The position numbers and the translations under genes were made by a program. This document shows, one piece after another, positions 3,220-12,981 of a stretch of 64,000 bases of DNA. Positions within the stretch are counted from its first letter, which is position 1. Every line of letters begins with the position of its first letter. The notes beneath the pieces were generated by a model, which was not told the origin of the DNA, did no database searches, and saw only the letters and a list, made by a program, of their open reading frames with translations. The DNA is taken from contig BTRG01000002.1 of assembly GCA_036986275.1 (NCBI GenBank), forward strand, positions 9,387-73,386, read 5' to 3'. Source of the DNA: Gammaproteobacteria bacterium (GTDB lineage: Bacteria > Pseudomonadota > Gammaproteobacteria > Acidiferrobacterales > SZUA-150).

Positions 3220-3798
3220 TCAGGCGCTTAGATTGCTCGTGATGATTTCTGTGCCCGCTTTCAACTTGTAGAGGTAATCCGCCCACACCTGCATCATTTT
3301 TCTGCGTTCAAGTAGGTGGGCTGTGCGATTATAAGCGCGCCCGTTGGGATCGCGCACTGCATGAGCAAGTTGATGCTCGATGTAATCCGGGCGGAAACCC
3401 AGCACTTCATCGAGGATGGTTCTCGCCATCGCACGGAATCCGTGGCCGCTCATTTCTTCCTTACTGATACCCATGCGTCGCATGGCGGCAAGGATCGCGT
3501 TATCACTCATCGGTCGTAACGTGCTGCGTGCACCTGGGAAGACATAGCATCCTCGACCAGTAACAGAGTGAAGTTCGTGCAGTATGTCTATGGCCTGCCG
3601 GGTTAGGGGAACAATGTGTTGGGTGTTGGTCTTGGTGACGGTGTAGCGCCATTCTGCTTTATCAAGGTTTATATCCGCCCATTCAGCATGTCGTAGTTCG
3701 CCTGGACGCACGAAGACCAATGGAGCGAGGCGGAGAGCGCAGCGGACGGTGAGGGTGCCTACGTAGCCATCTAAATACTCTGAGTATTTCAATTTCAA
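3220..3798 (-). pseudogene. P4-type tyrosine integrase, C-terminal catalytic domain only (N-terminal ~200 aa missing)
   Basis: The 192-aa product carries the R (VRPGELR), HxxR (HGFRAMAR) and Y (RAYNRTAH) catalytic signature of tyrosine recombinases. Full-length P4-like integrases are about 400 aa. Its first codon overlaps the higA stop. Confidence 0.75.
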
Positions 3799-4163
3799 GC
3801 GTGTACGTGAGGCTGCTTTATTAGCGATTCGGCAGGTATGCCCAGCCCTTCGTGGAGCCTCCAGATCATTTTGAGTGTCAATGAGCGTTTGTAATTGAGG
3901 ATCTCATACACGCGATTACTTTTGCCAATCATAGGCTCCAGGTCTTTTACGGTCAGGCCTGATCTTTCCATCTCAAATTTGATGGCCTCAACAGGGTCTG
4001 GAAGGTCAAGCGGGTAGTGCTTCGCTTCATAGGCCTCTATGAGTGTTACCAACACATCCAGCTTTTCACCTTCGGGTGAATCTGGCTCTGCCATCATGAG
4101 CGTTTCTACTTCTTTCAGTGCCGCGCGGTAGTCGGCATTAGTTTTAATCGGTTTGATATCCAT
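3795..4163 (-). CDS. higA: HigA-type HTH (XRE) antitoxin
   Basis: 122 aa, with the C-terminal HTH LTVKDLEPMIGKSNRVYEILNYKRSLTLKMIWRLHEGLGIPAESL. It lies directly downstream of a HigB-family toxin gene, which is the reversed toxin-first order typical of higBA. Confidence 0.75.
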   Translation of the reverse strand: MDIKPIKTNADYRAALKEVETLMMAEPDSPEGEKLDVLVTLIEAYEAKHYPLDLPDPVEAIKFEMERSGLTVKDLEPMIGKSNRVYEILNYKRSLTLKMIWRLHEGLGIPAESLIKQPHVHA

Positions 4164-4180
4164 GACTTTTACCTCTGGCG

Positions 4181-4531
4181 TTAAATTGTTTGTACATCTA
4201 TTTTGTCGTATTGAGCATGAGTTCCTATGAAGCGGATATAAACCACCCTATAGGCATAATTAATCCATACCACCAGCCGATATTTGTTACCGGCTATATT
4301 GAATACCGCTCTCGGCTCTGGCTTCCTGCTTCGCTCTACCTCCTGCATCCATGCAGTCGTGCCATCTTTGAGGATGCTCGCATTCCTGAAATCTTGCTTC
4401 ACATCCGTAGGTGTTGCCCAGTCTGCTTTCAATGTATGTCGATACCAGGCCAGGGTCTGAGCGGCGGCGTCCGAGTATTCTGGGTTCTTTTCCCAGAATG
4501 CCTTTAGTGTTGATAAGGCGATAATTCTCAT
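4181..4531 (-). CDS. higB: HigB-family (RelE-fold) toxin with an extra internal segment
   Basis: MRIIALSTLKAFWEKNPEYSDAAAQTLAWYRHTLKADWATPTDVKQDFRNASIL...VFNIAGNKYRLVVWINYAYRVVYIRFIGTHAQYDKIDVQTI matches the HigB_toxin family pattern. It is 116 aa versus roughly 95-100 aa as I recall. Confidence 0.75.
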   Translation of the reverse strand: MRIIALSTLKAFWEKNPEYSDAAAQTLAWYRHTLKADWATPTDVKQDFRNASILKDGTTAWMQEVERSRKPEPRAVFNIAGNKYRLVVWINYAYRVVYIRFIGTHAQYDKIDVQTI

Positions 4532-4542
4532 ATCCTGAATAA

Positions 4543-4561
4543 TAGTCCCAAAACGGGACTA
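4543..4561. promoter_or_regulatory. Candidate HigA operator (7-bp inverted repeat) in the higB/xis divergent promoter region
   Basis: TAGTCCC-aaaac-GGGACTA is a perfect inverted repeat 12 nt upstream of the higB start codon. A second small IR, TATCC-ag-GGATA, lies near 4577-4588. Confidence 0.35.
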
Positions 4562-4646
4562 CTTCAACTTGTCTAATATCCAGGGATATGGAAGGTGTGC
4601 CGCGGGCGTATGGATGCATGGGAGTGGCGATTCTGGAGGCGTGTAT

Positions 4647-4850
4647 ATGAATAATCAACGGCTTATGACCCAAAGAGAACTATGCAATCGCTGGCAATTA
4701 AGCGAAGCCACACTTGAGCGTTGGCGAGCAGATGGAGTTGGTCCAATTTGCATCAAGCTAGGCGGGCAGGTCAGATACCGGCGAGAAGGTATTGAGATCT
4801 ATGAGGAGAATTGCTTACGGGTTAGTACGTTAGAGGCGTATATCGTGTAA
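4647..4850 (+). CDS. Excisionase/MerR-like helix-turn-helix DNA-binding protein (HTH_17 type)
   Basis: MNNQRLMTQRELCNRWQLSEATLERWRADGVGPICIKLGGQVRYRREGIEIYEE. GGAGG at 4635-4639 precedes ATG 4647. The longer ORF-track start at 4569 has no such support. Confidence 0.6.
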   Translation: MNNQRLMTQRELCNRWQLSEATLERWRADGVGPICIKLGGQVRYRREGIEIYEENCLRVSTLEAYIV

Positions 4851-4939: not shown

Positions 4940-5303
4940 TGGTGGAGGCGGCGGGAATCGAACCCGCGTCCGCAAATCCTCCGCCTTCGGTTCTACATGC
5001 TTAGCCGCGTCTTTAAGTTTAACTGTAAGCTACCCGACGGGCAGGGAAGACTTACAGCGATTCCGGTAAAAGTTTAATGAATCTGCCCCGAACGTGCTTC
5101 ATCACGATCTTGTGAGATATGACGCCTGAAATCTGAACGCACAAGCACGGCTTCAGTCAGACGGCACCCTACTGGTGTTTAGGCAGCGAGTGCGTAGTTG
5201 TCGTCGTTGGCAACTATAGAGTTTGCAGTTGTGTTTACGAGGTAATCTGCGCCTCGGCATGCCCCTCAGGTTTTGTGACCCACGTCGAAGCCAGGTCGCC
5301 CCC
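4940..5303 (-). ncRNA. ssrA: tmRNA (SsrA), tag peptide ANDDNYALAA
   Basis: The reverse complement begins GGGGGCGACCUGGCUUCGACGUGGG and ends GGGUUCGAUUCCCGCCGCCUCCACCA. The 5-prime GGGGGCG pairs with CGCCUCC at the 3-prime end. The internal frame gcc aac gac gac aac tac gca ctc gct gcc taa (5211 down to 5179) follows the conserved GCAUGCCGAGG..CCUCGUAAA region. Confidence 0.95.
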
Positions 5304-5435
5304 AAAAGAGAAGTGGCGAGTAGCGAGGGTCTAGTAGCGAGGAACTTCGTTACCGCCCAGGCCACAGGCCGGAGACTCAATTCTAATGAGTCATCAAGAG
5401 TATAACCCCTGATGTATAAAATGGGGAGGTTTCAG

Positions 5436-5494
5436 CCCTTTTTCAAGGCGCGTTCGGTTTCACGCTTTTTAATGCTGGCGCGTTTGTCGTGCGC
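5436..5494 (-). repeat. Degenerate duplicate of the smpB 3-prime end (att-like direct repeat, copy A)
   Basis: The sequence ccctttttcaaggcgcg/ttcggtttcacg/..atgctggcgcgtttgtcgtgcg matches 6909-6979 apart from a 12-nt deletion and 3 mismatches. On the minus strand it still reads [19 protein letters not shown]. Confidence 0.85.
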
Positions 5495-5548
5495 TGGGCG
5501 TTGAGTGAAAGGGCTTATGGGTTCCAGTAAATGTCCACTAAAAATGGC

Positions 5549-5649
5549 TGTACATTATTAATGTACATGATATATTAGTGAACATGCTACTCAAGAAGTG
5601 GAGTGAACACCCCCTCTTGTTCACTAAAGGAGGATGTACATTAATAATG
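5549..5649. promoter_or_regulatory. Cluster of operator-like repeats upstream of the AbiEi-like gene
   Basis: The 19-bp palindrome TGTACATTAtTAATGTACA lies at 5549-5567, and TGTACATTAATAATG recurs at 5635-5649. AGTGAACA occurs at 5577-5584 and 5602-5609, with the inverted TGTTCACT at 5618-5625. Confidence 0.45.
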
Positions 5650-5663
5650 AATTTGGCTGATTT

Positions 5664-6749
5664 TTGAACATCATGAACCGGGAAACAGGCATCGAGCAGG
5701 AAATCCTTGATCGCGCTATCCAGGCTGTGGAGCGCGAGACGGGACTGCATCTGCATATTGAACAATTGCAAGCCTATGTAGGTGACTACAGAGTTGATGC
5801 CATTGTGCGGCTTGAGCCTGGTGATCAAGCGCTAGCGGTCGAGATAAAGAAGTGGGCGCAACACGCCAACCTCGGCGCCCTGATCAACCAGGTCAAGCAA
5901 CTGCCAGAGGAGGGGCTGCTGGTGGCCGATTACGTCAATCCCAGAATGGCGGACAAGCTGCGCAAGCAGCAGGTACAGTTTATCGATGTGGCAGGCAATG
6001 CTTACATCAATCAGCCACCCGTTTATGTCTATGTCACAGGCAACCGGCAGGAGGAGCACGGTTTTATGCCAGATAAGGGTGGCGTGAAACGGGCATTTGA
6101 ACCCAAGGGTTTGATGGTTATTTACGCCTTCCTTCGTCATCCGCAACTCGTCAATGCGCCTTATCGCGAGATAGCGGAGAGGGCTGGGGTGGCGGTCGGC
6201 ACTGTAGGTTGGGTTTTGAACGGTCTCAAGGCCGCGGAATTCATTCGTGATAAAGGCGGCAAGAAAAAGCGTCGCCTTGTCCGCTACCGTAAGCTGTTAG
6301 ACCGCTGGGTGGAGGCCTGGCCCGAGAAACTCAAGCCGAAGCTACTTGTGGGTGAGTTCATCGCGGATGATCCGTACTGGTGGAAAGACGTCGACATTAC
6401 TGCATACGATGGTCATTGGGGCGGAGAAACCGCGGCAGCCAAATATACAAATTACCTCAAGCCAACGGTGGCGACGGTTTACCTGCCTGAACATGCCCGC
6501 ACCCGACTGCTTCGCGATGCCCGACTTCGAAAAGCGATTGAATGGACCGGAGATGATGCGGGTACAGTGCTTATTTATCGACCATTTTGGCAGGTGCAAC
6601 TTGATGAACTCGATACCGAATTGAGGAAAGGATTGGTCCACCCAATTTTGGTTTATGCCGATCTGGTGGCAACGGGTGACCCTAGAAATTTAGAAGTGGC
6701 ACGGAGAATCTATGACGAGCACATTGCTCAATATTGCAGGGAAGATTAA
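5664..6749 (+). CDS. AbiEi_2-like (type IV TA antitoxin-like) wHTH protein with an extra N-terminal PD-(D/E)xK-like region
   Basis: The central HTH is YREIAERAGVAVGTVGWVLNGLKAAEFI. The C-terminal part (LLDRWVEAWPEKLKPKLLVGEF...WGGETAAAKYTNYLKPTVATVYLP) resembles the AbiEi_2/DUF2186 family as I recall it. The N-terminus has VDAIVRLE...LAVEIKK, a D..E.K pattern. The start is uncertain (TTG 5664 or ATG 5673). Confidence 0.5.
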   Translation: MNIMNRETGIEQEILDRAIQAVERETGLHLHIEQLQAYVGDYRVDAIVRLEPGDQALAVEIKKWAQHANLGALINQVKQLPEEGLLVADYVNPRMADKLRKQQVQFIDVAGNAYINQPPVYVYVTGNRQEEHGFMPDKGGVKRAFEPKGLMVIYAFLRHPQLVNAPYREIAERAGVAVGTVGWVLNGLKAAEFIRDKGGKKKRRLVRYRKLLDRWVEAWPEKLKPKLLVGEFIADDPYWWKDVDITAYDGHWGGETAAAKYTNYLKPTVATVYLPEHARTRLLRDARLRKAIEWTGDDAGTVLIYRPFWQVQLDELDTELRKGLVHPILVYADLVATGDPRNLEVARRIYDEHIAQYCRED

Positions 6750-6864
6750 TCCGCAAACTGTCGCACTATTCGAAACAGTCAGCCGTGCAATTGCTGATAT
6801 GGATATGCCCTATTCAGTACGACAGGAATCAACAGTTACTAACTGCCTTCATGGCCGGTTTTAA
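6712..6864 (+). pseudogene. Truncated nucleotidyltransferase-like partner gene (only ~34 N-terminal codons recognisable)
   Basis: This 50-codon ORF overlaps the end of the upstream gene by 38 nt (MTSTLLNIAGKINPQTVALFETVSRAIADMDMPY...). The N-terminus resembles those of toxin-type nucleotidyltransferases found downstream of AbiEi genes. It then diverges and terminates just before smpB. Confidence 0.3.
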
Positions 6865-6904
6865 CCAACAATAAGGTAAAGCGTTTTATATATGCGGGCA
6901 GTTG

Positions 6905-7378
6905 TTATCCCTTTTTCAAGGCGCGGGCGATCTCGCGTTCGGTTTCACGTTTCTTGATGCTGGCGCGTTTGTCGTGCGACTGCTTGCCGCGGGCCAGACC
7001 AATCTCCAGTTTGGCGCGGCCATGTTTCCAGTACATCGACAACGGCGCCAGTGTGTAGCCCTTGCGGTCAACAGCGCCTATGAGTTTGTCGATTTCGCGC
7101 GCATGCAATAAAAGTTTGCGCGGTCGATCCGGGTGGGGATGGATGTGAGTGGAGGCCGTTGCCAGCGGTGCAATGTGCACACCCAGCAGCCAGGCCTCGC
7201 CTTTTTCCACGCGCACATAGCCCTCCGTCAGTTGCACCCGCCCGGCCCGCAGGCTCTTGACCTCCCAGCCTTCCAGCGCCAGGCCGGCCTCGAAGCGATC
7301 TTCGATGAAATAGTCGTGCCGGGCCTTTTTGTTCTGGGCTATGGTGTTACTAGGCGCCTTGGGTTTTTTCTTACTCAT
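6905..7378 (-). CDS. smpB: SsrA-binding protein SmpB
   Basis: [46 protein letters not shown]... is the canonical SmpB sequence, 157 aa. Confidence 0.95.
6909..6979 (-). repeat. smpB 3-prime end, copy B of the att-like direct repeat
   Basis: This is the functional end of smpB and is duplicated at 5436-5494. Confidence 0.85.
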
Positions 7379-9591: not shown

Positions 9592-10017
9592 TTATTCCGG
9601 TGATGTGGCGGGGCTTCCGGGTTTGGCCTTGTTTGTGTCTGAGGCGCCACTGCGATCATAGACCCTGGGTTCGATGCGCAAGGCATTGCTATCATCTTTC
9701 TCAGGTTCAGGGTGGGTTTCCATGCGCACGAGTTTTGCTGACTCGAAGAACAACGTCAGCCTGCGCTGCTCATAGTCGCTGGCGCCGTCTTTGATCAAGG
9801 CGAAGTAATAGTCCCACCGTTGCTGATGAAACGGATCGGTGACCAGCGGTGACCCGAGCACGAAACGTACTTGTCTTGGGGTCATGCCGGGCTTGAGCTT
9901 GTCCACCATGTCCTGAGTAATGACATTGCCCTGCTGGACATCCGGGACATACAGCAACCACTGGCAACCATTCAGGAATACACTTAATAGTACAAGGGGT
10001 AAGGCGAGACGCCACAT
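9592..10017 (-). CDS. bamE: Outer membrane protein assembly factor BamE (SmpA/OmlA)
   Basis: Lipoprotein signal LLSVFLNGC followed by VPDVQQGNVITQDMVDKLKPGMTPRQVRFVLGSPLVTDPF. Confidence 0.9.
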   Translation of the reverse strand: MWRLALPLVLLSVFLNGCQWLLYVPDVQQGNVITQDMVDKLKPGMTPRQVRFVLGSPLVTDPFHQQRWDYYFALIKDGASDYEQRRLTLFFESAKLVRMETHPEPEKDDSNALRIEPRVYDRSGASDTNKAKPGSPATSPE

Positions 10018-10115
10018 TTTGCTAATCCGGGATCACCTGTTTAAACTGGGCCGGCATCATAACCCAGCCCCGGGAGGGATGGTAGCGCATCGCCGCTGCA
10101 TCAGATTCCAGGTAT

Positions 10116-10550
10116 ATGAGTGATATTGATTTAAAAAAAGCCGGCCTCAAAGCGACCCTGCCACGTCTGAAGATTCTGAATATTCTTGAATCTGCGGAAA
10201 CCGATCACATGTCCGCCGAAGATGTGTACAAGCATTTGCTGGAGGCGGGAGAAGAAGTGGGTTTGGCCACGGTTTATCGGGTGTTGACGCAGTTTGAGAA
10301 TGCAGGCCTTTTGTTGCGTCATAAGTTTGAAGGGGATCGTGCGGTCTATGAACTCAATCAGGGGGGTCACCACGATCACATGGTATGTGTAGAGTGCGGG
10401 CGTGTGTTTGAGTTTGTAGATAATGCTATTGAAGAAAGACAGCAGCAGGTGGCCAAGGCCGCGGGTTTTGTGACCGAGGATCACACTTTATATATGTATG
10501 GTGTGTGTGAAGGCATGAAAAAGGACGGCGTCTGTTCCAAGCGCGACTAG
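10116..10550 (+). CDS. fur: Ferric uptake regulator
   Basis: LKKAGLKATLPRLKILNILE...MSAEDVYKHLLEAGEEVGLATVYRVLTQFENAGLL...HHDHMVCVECGRVFEF. Confidence 0.95.
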   Translation: MSDIDLKKAGLKATLPRLKILNILESAETDHMSAEDVYKHLLEAGEEVGLATVYRVLTQFENAGLLLRHKFEGDRAVYELNQGGHHDHMVCVECGRVFEFVDNAIEERQQQVAKAAGFVTEDHTLYMYGVCEGMKKDGVCSKRD

Positions 10551-10783
10551 TACTCCGTCAAGTTAGTATTGATGGGTTCAGAGCTAGTGTATTCTCCCTG
10601 GGGAGGGTATCGTAAAAGTGGGTTGTGCGTAGGTTGGTGCTGAGGTACGAAGCCCAACATAAATGATTGACTAAACGCACATGTTGGGCTTCGTACCTCA
10701 GCACCAACCTACAAAAGACTTTTACAATACCCATAGGAAGGAGCCGATCATTACCCATCAAAGCAACCTTGTTGGAGTACTAG
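10547..10783. mobile_element. ~237-bp imperfect palindromic (MITE/REP-like) element between convergent fur and GNAT genes
   Basis: The core arms 10631-10660 and 10681-10710 form a perfect 30-bp inverted repeat. A middle pair, GGGTATCGTAAAAGT (10605-10619) and ACTTTTACAATACCC (10718-10732), matches at 14 of 15. The termini are CTAGTACTCC (10547-10556) and GGAGTACTAG (10774-10783), with further partial pairing. TA dinucleotides flank the GTACTCC termini. Confidence 0.65.
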
Positions 10784-10799
10784 CCGGTTAGTCGCGGGC

Positions 10800-11342
10800 T
10801 TAGCTACCGGTGCGACCGAGATCCCGTAGCACGGCAATTTCATCGCAGTTGTCGTATTTATAACACTTGATACAAATGCCCCAGACCTTTTCCGGCAGCG
10901 TGTCTTTAGGCACGGTTTTGAAGTCGAGCTTGTGAAAGAAGTCAGGCACATAGGTCAGAGCCATTAACTGTTTCAGGCCCAGCAGTCGAGCCTCCTCAAT
11001 AATGCCTTCGACCAGTTTGCGTCCCAGCCCCAGTTTATTGAATTGAGAGTCCACTACCAGGCTGCGTACCTCGGCCAGGGTCTCGGTAAAGATTTCCAGT
11101 GCGCCGCAGGCCACGATTTTATTCTGATGTTCAGCAACAAAGAAGTCACGTAAGTGGCGGTAGATTTCATTCATGGGGCGCGGCAACAAATTGCCCATCT
11201 CGGCATAGCCTTCAATAAGATGGTGTATCGCGGCGACATCATAAATGGTAGCCGGTCGCACAATCGCATCAATAGAAGGTTGTACGGCCGATGAGTCCTG
11301 ATGGGTGTCAGGCAGTGGCACGGCTAAGCATGTCCTCTGCAT
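10800..11342 (-). CDS. GNAT-family N-acetyltransferase (short ArgA-like, COG1246 type)
   Basis: IVRPATIYDVAAIHHLIEGYAE...ACGALEIF..LAEVRSLVVDSQFNKLGLGRKLVE...PEKVWGICIKCYKYDNCDEIA. The ORF-track start overlaps recN by 35 nt, so the true start may be GTG 11321 or GTG 11261. Confidence 0.75.
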   Translation of the reverse strand: MQRTCLAVPLPDTHQDSSAVQPSIDAIVRPATIYDVAAIHHLIEGYAEMGNLLPRPMNEIYRHLRDFFVAEHQNKIVACGALEIFTETLAEVRSLVVDSQFNKLGLGRKLVEGIIEEARLLGLKQLMALTYVPDFFHKLDFKTVPKDTLPEKVWGICIKCYKYDNCDEIAVLRDLGRTGS

Positions 11343-12981
11343 GATCCAGTGTTTGTTGACTGATTTCTATCCCACCCAACATGCGCGCCACTTCGGCAAT
11401 GCGTTGGACCTCATCCAGTTCCTTGATCTGGGTAGAGGTGTCATCGTTCTCCGTCTGTTTGCTCACTTGCAGATGTTGCTGTCCCTGGGCGGCCACCTGC
11501 GGCAGGTGCGTGATGCATAACACCTGTCGGTTAGCACCCAGGGCGCGTAATTGTTTGCCTACGACTTCGGCAATGCGACCGCCAATACCGACATCCACTT
11601 CATCGAAGATCAGGGTGGGGATGCGCCCCAGACCGGCAATGACAACCTGCAACGCCAGGCTGATACGTGAGAGTTCGCCACCGGAGGCGACCTTGCTCAG
11701 GGGTCTGCTGTCCTGCCCCGGGTTGGCGCTGACCAGGAATTCAATACGATCACGACCATATGCAGTGATCTCGTCTTTATCCAGATCCGTGCAGCCCACC
11801 TCGAAATGTCCACCTTCCATGCCCAGTTCCTGCATCCTTTCAGTGATTTCCTGGCCCAGTTTTATGGCAGCGTGTCGGCGTTTGCTGGAGATGATCGAAG
11901 CCAGCGCGCCATATACTTCCCGTGCCTGTGTCAAGGCCGATTCCAGCCCGGCAAGATTATTATCTGCATCATTAAGATCGGCCAGTTCCTGTGACAGGCG
12001 CCCAAAGACATCGGGCAGTTCCGCGGCCTTAACCTGATGTTTGCGTGACAGGTCGTGTATGAATGCCAGTCTTTCGTTCAGCCATTGCAGGCGTTGCGGG
12101 TCCAGTTCCAGACTGTTCAGGTATTGATGCAATTGGGATGCTGCTTCGTCGATTTGAATGATAGCTTCATTGAGTAGCGTGGTGCTGTCATCCAGGCGCG
12201 CATCATGCTCGCCCAGTTGTTCCAGTTGCTGCGTGGTGCGCGCCAATAATTGACTGAGCGCATGTTCGTCGTCATCGTAGAGGGTGTGCACCGCGGCTTG
12301 TACACCTTCGAGCAAGCTGGCGCCATGGCTGAGACGATGGTGCTCGTTTTCCAGTTCCGGTACCTCTTCCTTGCTTAACGACAGGGTCTCCAGTTCCCTG
12401 CATTGGTATCGCAGGACCTCAAGTCGCGCTTCCCTGTTCTGTGCCTGATTCTTGAGCTGAGCCAATCGGGTCTGCAGTTCACGAAGTTCTTTAAAGTGGT
12501 TTCCCAGTTCAGATACCTCCTTGCCAATACCGGTATAGTCATCCAGTATTTGTCGCTGGGCCGTGCGTTTAAGCAGGGACTGGTGTTCGTGTTGACCATG
12601 AACATCCACCAGTAATTGCCCCAGTTCCTTTACCGATTGCACCGGTACGGGCCGACTATTGATAAAGGCCTTGGAAGGCTTGTCACGCTGTATGACGCGT
12701 CGTAACAGACATTCGCCATCATCGAATAAGTCGTGTTTTTTCAGCCATAGTGCGGCATCGCTGTCAGGTGTCAGCTCAAAGGCGGCAATGACTTCGGCAT
12801 GGGCTGCGCCCTGCCTGATGGCGTTGCTGTCGGCGCGCTCCCCCAATGCCAGCGCCAGTGCATCTATCAATATGGATTTACCGGCACCGGTTTCACCCGT
12901 CATGACACTGAGCCCGGATGACAGTCCCAGGTCTAACTGCTGCACGATAGCAAAGTCCCTTATATAAAAATGATTCAGCAT
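11308..12981 (-). CDS. recN: DNA repair protein RecN
   Basis: MLNHFYIRDFAIVQQLDLGLSSGLSVMTGETGAGKSILIDAL contains the Walker A motif, and the C-terminal SGGELSRISLAL is the signature motif. ATG 12981 lies 2 nt after the nadK stop. Confidence 0.95.
   Translation of the reverse strand: MLNHFYIRDFAIVQQLDLGLSSGLSVMTGETGAGKSILIDALALALGERADSNAIRQGAAHAEVIAAFELTPDSDAALWLKKHDLFDDGECLLRRVIQRDKPSKAFINSRPVPVQSVKELGQLLVDVHGQHEHQSLLKRTAQRQILDDYTGIGKEVSELGNHFKELRELQTRLAQLKNQAQNREARLEVLRYQCRELETLSLSKEEVPELENEHHRLSHGASLLEGVQAAVHTLYDDDEHALSQLLARTTQQLEQLGEHDARLDDSTTLLNEAIIQIDEAASQLHQYLNSLELDPQRLQWLNERLAFIHDLSRKHQVKAAELPDVFGRLSQELADLNDADNNLAGLESALTQAREVYGALASIISSKRRHAAIKLGQEITERMQELGMEGGHFEVGCTDLDKDEITAYGRDRIEFLVSANPGQDSRPLSKVASGGELSRISLALQVVIAGLGRIPTLIFDEVDVGIGGRIAEVVGKQLRALGANRQVLCITHLPQVAAQGQQHLQVSKQTENDDTSTQIKELDEVQRIAEVARMLGGIEISQQTLDHAEDMLSRATA

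Follow-up and report, generated by a model that had tools for sequence, protein, structure and literature searches.

What happened between smpB and ssrA, the genes of the two trans-translation partners, in a bacterium of the gammaproteobacterial lineage SZUA-150? In the 64,000 nt of contig BTRG01000002.1 (assembly GCA_036986275.1) that were analysed and that we call the window, the protein gene smpB is separated from ssrA, the gene of the transfer-messenger RNA (tmRNA), by an islet, and the end of smpB occurs twice, once on either side of it. We consider it probable, at roughly 0.7, that the islet is the remnant of a decayed integrative island, similar to a cis-mobilizable element (CIME), that entered the 3' end of smpB and had brought a replacement gene end with it.

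The repeated smpB end

The last 75 nt of smpB, its last codon and stop codon counted, form the copy R1 and recur on the ssrA side of the islet as R2 (Table 1). A repeat search and a MAFFT alignment resolve the pair into two matching blocks, 5449-5493 with 6934-6978 (45 nt, 93 %) and 5437-5451 with 6910-6924 (15 nt, 100 %), parted by an in-frame gap of 12 nt in R2. The gap is flanked by two CGCG tetramers, which is a signature of slippage. When 6880-7000 was compared by BLAST with the whole 64-kb window, R2 was the sole second match (E = 6e-15 and 6e-4). The likeness ends sharply 5' of 6979. On the minus strand R2 reads 19 residues and then a stop, compared with 23 residues and a stop for the smpB tail; it has no reading frame upstream of it and is preceded by the promoter region of abiEi, the intact gene of the islet. 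The stop codon of R2 lies 128 nt from ssrA.

R1 and R2 agree in 92 % of the aligned columns, and the 5 substitutions found in 60 aligned coding columns (ATC/ATT, AAG/AAA, AAA/AAG, GGA/GGC and TAA/TGA) are all silent. The probability of an all-silent pattern under neutral drift of a non-coding R2 is P = 4e-4 to 2e-3. Silent-only differences are expected if both copies evolved as coding ends, one of them native and the other brought in, and to judge from their sequences R1 and R2 would resemble two alleles rather than a copy and its decay product.

The duplication of the smpB 3' end had been proposed in a first-pass annotation of the window, which compared 5436-5494 with 6909-6979, and most of its description holds. 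It correctly counted 3 mismatches within those coordinates, the GGA/GGC and TAA/TGA differences lying outside them, and it rightly described the 12-nt deletion with gcg microhomology, the minus-strand reading of 19 residues to a stop (reproduced by our translation) and a distance of about 130 nt to the tmRNA gene. The weak similarity that it saw for about 25 nt past the stop is not significant. Local alignments of the segments after the R1 and R2 stop codons, with each other and with the spacers of relatives, gave scores equalled by 28-99 % of shuffles, and an extension of the repeat beyond the stop codon is ruled out by this shuffling.

Comparison with other SmpB proteins bears on which copy is derived. 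The tail encoded by R1 has the same length as in 106 of the 120 best homologues, and its ending is common to all 13 close homologues. Counted from the HDKR motif, at least 23 residues are found in each of the 120, as in R1, and the 19 residues of R2 in none; the deletion of 4 codons in R2 is therefore derived. The most economical assignment puts the crossover close to where the repeat begins on its 5' side. The present tail of smpB would then have been brought by the element, wholly or in part, and kept under selection, and R2 would be the displaced native tail, from which 12 nt were lost later. The reverse assignment, with R1 native and R2 carried in by the element, is a possible one.

The empty site and the content of the islet

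Two sets of relatives were compared with the window. An SmpB scan of species-representative genomes yielded 80 loci, the best SmpB being 74 % identical, and four metagenome relatives (L082, L085, L087 and L090) have SmpB proteins 79-83 % identical. The four metagenome relatives are fully syntenic with the window in the order grpE-hrcA-nadK-recN-GNAT-fur-bamE-rnfH-cyclase-SNF-smpB, and ssrA begins 38-64 nt past the smpB stop, with no insert, in all of them. They provide the empty site, smpB and then ssrA, for which the first-pass annotation had suggested a search. Among the 80 more distant loci, ssrA lies within about 250 nt of smpB in about 30, and an integrase directly after smpB was found in none. 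A second copy of the smpB end, which that annotation had named as contrary evidence if carried by genomes lacking the islet, was likewise present in 0 of the 80. Larger gaps between smpB and ssrA at 8 of the 80 loci hold open reading frames (ORFs) without an integrase match; no family searches were made on these ORFs.

The junction of smpB, abiEii stub and abiEi on the R1 side is also present in a separate assembly, Logan DRR500112 (L001), a short contig of matching layout and the sole further one to which an exact look-up of the SmpB protein led. DNA identity between the window and the relatives is 75-77 % for smpB and 87-90 % for ssrA, values consistent with both genes of the window being native outgroup copies.

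The islet itself, 5495-6904 (1410 nt, given earlier as about 1.4 kb), consists of exactly one AbiE type IV toxin-antitoxin (TA) cassette and nothing else. AbiE, a type IV TA and abortive infection system, is said to have been described by Dy et al. in 2014 as an AbiEi antitoxin-regulator paired with an AbiEii nucleotidyltransferase. Like such systems, the islet has an AbiEi_2-domain protein, inverted-repeat operators upstream of it and an overlapping abiEii frame; unlike intact ones, it lacks a complete AbiEii nucleotidyltransferase toxin, so that the toxin gene is dead and an orphan antitoxin/regulator is left. The operator region contains inverted and direct repeats (I1, I2 and D1), with promoter-like sites overlapping the palindromes, and the operator palindrome is kept in a cassette from another locus (L107, described below) despite a protein identity of 49 %.

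Alignment with cassettes elsewhere shows how the toxin gene was damaged. The DNA from 5500 to 6775 is 80.5 % identical to abiEi-abiEii cassettes at other loci. Homology to one of them, L092, begins at 5500, breaks off at 6775 and restarts at 6811-6858 (L092 11834-11881, 94 %) in the last abiEii codons, and the abiEii stub can be aligned to the N-terminal 36 aa of L092 AbiEii. The deletion of about 0.7 kb shifts the frame; intact homologues have 278-298 aa. Since the 3' end of abiEii is present, the loss is internal, and we could rule out that the 50-aa ORF of the stub, which has no Pfam match, was cut off by the islet boundary.

Relaxase or transfer genes are absent from the islet, which holds only abiEi and the abiEii remnant, and transposon or insertion sequence hallmarks are missing as well: the islet ends have no terminal inverted repeats, there is no transposase, and the duplication measures 63-75 nt. 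No ORF and no homology were found in the 30-nt junction 6875-6904. The first-pass annotation had called the integrase-free islet a remnant of an element, and the gene content agrees with this. The idea of a decayed element stands with a refinement, in that what is left is not a random stump but one AbiE cassette with an internally deleted toxin gene.

Related cassettes, known systems and the neighbourhood

AbiEi homologues from other loci are 49-84 % identical, and abiEii always follows with an overlap of 35-38 nt in the loci read. None of these homologues lies beside smpB or ssrA. In metagenome contigs, a scan with AbiEi picked out 14 loci, 0 of them near smpB or tmRNA, and an exact look-up of the AbiEi protein gave no record.

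Several AbiE cassettes of this family adjoin tRNA genes. At L107 (Ga0209831_1000001, 9755-11998) a lone intact abiEi-abiEii pair has tRNA-Lys(ttt) at one end and, at the other, 68 nt that repeat the 3' part of this tRNA gene at 96 % identity, with the tol-pal-cpoB cluster beyond on one side and a macB-type ABC transporter on the other. The geometry is that of the window, the target gene converging on abiEii and the fragment lying beside the abiEi promoter. At L122 (4767-9750) abiEi-abiEii and an AEP/DEAD-box helicase gene, with no integrase, are flanked by a tRNA-Met 3' end repeated over 51 nt at 92 %. At L118 (6976-7529) tRNA-Ser(gga) is followed by two more copies of its 3' end and terminator, one 57 nt long at 98 % and one degenerate, beside the end of abiEii. 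On the sister contig of L118, L119, abiEii is split into ORFs of 149 aa and 133 aa, so toxin decay is recurrent.

When loci are compared, homology of the cassettes gives out about 60-180 nt ahead of abiEi and, downstream, short of the abiEii stop. These limits, inside the promoter region at one end and inside the toxin gene at the other, indicate a cassette without element ends of its own, and they rule out conserved element ends on AbiE cassettes. As far as these loci can be read, the pattern fits islands decaying to the parts under selection, namely a regenerated target, the upstream region of the neighbour and an addictive TA pair whose toxin finally dies.

A related cassette also occurs in an island with an integrase, an AlpA-like gene and type I restriction-modification genes (L094/L095). 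This island (L094 4713-6278; L095) starts directly after a relA/spoT-type gene, and ARAGORN finds no tRNA at the junction, which may be another 3' end of a protein gene used as attachment (att) site.

Replacement of a gene end by an integrating element is classical for icd, whose 3' end is the integration site of e14 and of phage 21 (PMC12803456). In E. coli K-12 we compared the end of icd with the displaced fragment icdC. They match over 165 nt apart from 12 differences, of which 11 fall on third codon positions, and upstream the likeness breaks off sharply. As we read it, the window resembles e14/icd in that the split falls near the 3' end of a protein gene, a tail comes with the element, the displaced native tail comes to lie at the far end and the differences are near-silent. 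It differs in that e14 keeps intE and xisE, the smpB repeat is 63-75 nt long and not 165 nt, and the displaced smpB tail lands in front of ssrA.

CIMEs are decayed remnants of integrative and conjugative or integrative and mobilizable elements (ICEs and IMEs) that retain attL and attR and have lost the recombination and transfer genes (PMC7563491). The islet is CIME-like in being bracketed by an att-type repeat, in lacking integrase, relaxase and transfer genes and in holding cargo only. Unlike the typical CIME setting there is no tandem partner element, and 12 nt are missing from R2. An ICE or IME as ancestor would be putative; related AbiE cassettes do occur in an island that bears an integrase.

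A classical island target, ssrA, lies next to the islet (Islander/TIGER framework, PMC4383910). As in tRNA and tmRNA islands, the target gene has been made whole again and its displaced fragment shows where the ends lie, and the AbiE islets of L107 and L122 are indeed bracketed by tRNA fragments. Unlike in ssrA islands, the islet duplicates the end of a protein gene and not ssrA, and BLAST showed no part of ssrA to occur twice in the window.

The gene smpB has itself been named as a locus of prophages, as the target label of the Acinetobacter baumannii prophage '52.smpB' (bioRxiv 10.64898/2026.02.16.706188) and as the flank of prophage Ph1-N (PMC7392541). Such labels name smpB, as at our locus, as the site of integration, in their case of a prophage with a tyrosine integrase; in the records that we examined, which do not include 52.smpB itself, the integrase lies upstream of smpB. 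Acinetobacter phage vB_AbaS_qsb1 (PV107591.1; L110/L111) has a weak 26-nt repeat (88 %, E 0.012) just before int and just before smpB. Its 'complete phage genome' has the integrase at one end, holds a flavodoxin gene and a host-type smpB of full length at the opposite end, and looks like a prophage with host flanks that integrated upstream of smpB. In the IMG/VR provirus L112 (8685-10444) xis-int is followed 50 nt later by smpB, that is, on its 5' side. Tn6875-type elements described as '494 bp downstream of smpB' use a different site of 11 bp (PMC9058013). We found no literature report of the smpB 3' end as an integration target, the TIGER tables of Mageeney et al. 2020 not being covered, and it is apparently an unreported target for a known kind of element.

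The features of the locus are collected in Table 1. The spacer between R2 and ssrA is 128 nt long, about 90 nt more than in the four syntenic relatives. Its TATACT box (5399-5404) is the counterpart of a TATACT/TATAAT box that lies 13 nt before the mature tmRNA 5' end in the relatives and about 95 nt away in the window, so that either the precursor has a long leader or another promoter is used. A consensus scan of the ssrA strand in the spacer region found no sigma-70-type promoter. The extra 90 nt or so, of which the window holds no further copy, include a short direct repeat, AGTAGCGAGG, present twice (about 5318-5343). The tag peptide called by ARAGORN is ANSIVANDDNYALAA, compared with ANDDNYALAA in nearly all relatives, and the longer tag is probably an over-extended call of the resume codon.

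Directly downstream of ssrA, Pfam and NCBIfam matches reveal a second decayed island (3220-4850), with higB and a higA-like gene. The locus thus has two adjacent island remnants, each with a TA module. At the left edge of the window an AbiEii-family nucleotidyltransferase gene (1-615; Pfam 7e-17, profile positions 109-236) runs off the end and is followed by a stretch of 34-38 % GC (about 450-1100); its sequence is unrelated to that of the islet, and it is ruled out as the missing piece of the toxin. An exonuclease I (sbcB-like) gene lies at 1390-2874.

Table 1. Positions of the islet, its flanking genes and the neighbouring island in the window
Feature	Position	Strand	Evidence or remark
AlpA-like helix-turn-helix gene, second island	4569-4850	+	
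higB, second island	4181-4531	-	
higA-like gene, second island	3795-4163	-	
P4-type integrase, second island	3220-3798	-	C-terminal ~190 aa (half) only; start abuts higA stop codon
ssrA (tmRNA), full length	4940..5303	-	ARAGORN; Rfam RF00023 232 bits, model positions 1-374
R2-ssrA spacer, presumed ssrA promoter site	5304..5431	-	alignment with L082, L085, L087, L090
R2, lower repeat copy, attR-like; putatively displaced smpB tail fragment with own stop codon and 12-nt in-frame deletion	5432..5494	-	
abiEi promoter/operator region	5500..5672	+	palindromes TGTACATTATTAATGTACA (5549-5567) and TGTACATTAATAATG (5635-5649)
abiEi antitoxin / transcriptional regulator, intact, 358 aa from ATG	5673..6749	+	Pfam AbiEi_2 (PF09952) 3e-35
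abiEii toxin remnant	6712..6874	+	first ~33 codons (6712-~6811) joined out of frame to last ~20 (6811-6874)
Junction from abiEii stop to smpB stop, 30 nt; only space left where an integrase module could have been	6875..6904	.	
R1, upper repeat copy, attL-like; functional smpB tail including stop codon	6905..6979	-	repeat search, MAFFT, BLAST
smpB, intact, 157 aa	6905..7378	-	Pfam SmpB 1e-60; NCBIfam equivalog PRK05422 1e-66

Origin of the islet and its meaning

We hypothesize that smpB stood directly in front of ssrA in this lineage before the insertion, and that an island carrying a copy of about 70 nt of the smpB end in its attachment site recombined site-specifically with the chromosomal smpB 3' end. 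A tyrosine (or serine) recombinase would have catalysed the recombination of attP with attB within the smpB tail. Integration would have left smpB intact with a tail that is at least partly the copy of the element (R1), and ssrA, with its upstream region and the original smpB tail (R2) in front of it, would have ended up beyond the insert. With the smpB tail regenerated and ssrA keeping its upstream region, both trans-translation genes would have stayed functional. The integrase and all unselected parts would later have been deleted, and the AbiE cassette would have remained, packed between the repeats and resisting loss while its toxin was active. As last steps the toxin gene would have been ruined by its internal deletion and R2 would have lost 12 nt by slippage. 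We infer the recombinase-made junctions, the choice of the native copy and the order of decay.

The marks of integration into a gene 3' end are a bracketing repeat, one intact gene with one displaced fragment, an empty site and silent divergence with a sharp 5' edge, and each is found at this locus. With no integrase in the islet, we class it only as a remnant of such elements. The first-pass annotation had already proposed an element in the smpB 3' end that brought a replacement gene end, and this proposal is supported by the empty sites, the silent differences, the likeness to e14/icd and the island-type cargo.

Several points weigh against this proposal. No integrase, excisionase or other recombination gene is present among the islet genes (5495-6904), and the cassette leaves margins of just 5 nt towards R2 and 30 nt towards the smpB stop, in which no integrase remnant can hide. 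So near-exact a fit of the cassette needs repeated trimming, or hints at another insertion route. An intact parent, that is, an integrase-bearing element beside an attP resembling the smpB tail, for which the first-pass annotation had suggested a search, was found neither in viral or metagenome contigs nor among the 80 genome loci. A degenerate DNA pattern of the smpB tail had 0 matches in the viral contigs, and an SmpB scan of these contigs gave 5 proviruses, 3 in ssrA and 2 upstream of smpB. The argument from silent differences rests on just 5 substitutions, and the native copy is not decidable from the relatives compared, a closer one being required. Finally, the source is a metagenome-assembled genome, and the junction on the R2 side is known from this one assembly.

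One alternative explanation is that AbiE was inserted at the smpB/ssrA boundary by an illegitimate or replication-based event free of any integrase, which duplicated about 65-75 nt of the target in situ, without an attP, and that the copies diverged in place; such an insertion would have survived only because neither the tail of smpB nor the region upstream of ssrA was lost. The interval filled by the cassette alone, the lack of a recombinase and of a parent element, and the occurrence of AbiE cassettes as compact modules in many unrelated contexts all speak for it. We nevertheless judge it unlikely. R2 would have been non-coding from the start, and silent-only divergence is unlikely after a duplication with a drifting copy: even with R1 limited to silent changes, 5 silent substitutions out of 5 have a probability of only about 0.005-0.017. 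A repeat of such length that starts sharply inside a gene and ends at or near the stop is the standard pattern of integrase targets, as in e14/icd, and elsewhere cassettes of this family are enclosed by duplicated tRNA 3' ends whose starts lie in the anticodon-stem or T-arm region, which are recognised sublocations of integrase crossover.

A further explanation concerns the retention of R2 and is compatible with either origin. R2 may have been kept mainly as part of the ssrA upstream regulatory region. With ssrA only 38-64 nt past the smpB stop in relatives, the sequence upstream of its promoter overlaps the smpB tail, and a viable insertion therefore had to leave a tail on ssrA. This spacing, the conserved arrangement of tail, spacer and TATACT/TATAAT box and the 92 % identity of R2 to R1 agree with such a role. 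Against it, the -10-like box is in the spacer and not in the tail, R2 has no sigma-70 -35 match, and both the 12-nt deletion in R2 and some 90 extra nt of spacer were tolerated; moreover, constraint on a promoter would not give codon-silent differences. Retention mainly for regulation thus seems quite unlikely to us. Very improbable is an assembly artefact in which a metagenome assembler joined two strains or loci through a shared smpB tail into a false tandem layout. The metagenomic source and the R2-side junction, not seen in a second assembly, would allow it, but the junction on the R1 side is reproduced in the independent Logan assembly, and the layout is biologically coherent, with an intact smpB, an intact ssrA and a cassette with its own operators. 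Nor can the copies be a collapsed repeat, given 5 substitutions and an indel between them.

The most interesting by-product of this analysis is the recurrence of AbiE alone between att repeats. It is conceivable, albeit rather unlikely, that the smpB 3' end is a genuine, unrecorded att site of an integrase lineage and that att-flanked AbiE cassettes are recurrent mini-elements without an integrase (at smpB, tRNA-Lys, tRNA-Met and tRNA-Ser), movable in cis by incoming islands. If so, the arrangement would also uncouple ssrA from smpB.

With the islet read as a decayed island, the smpB 3' end lengthens the list of protein-gene 3' ends used for integration, and both trans-translation partners, smpB and ssrA, can be struck at one locus with neither function lost. 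Islets of this sort would escape island finders that depend on an integrase or on a tRNA/tmRNA fragment. Here and in the tRNA islets, what holds out longest between the att repeats is the TA cassette, of which the toxin is the first part to die, a pattern that fits the idea of addiction modules outlasting the islands that they stabilise.

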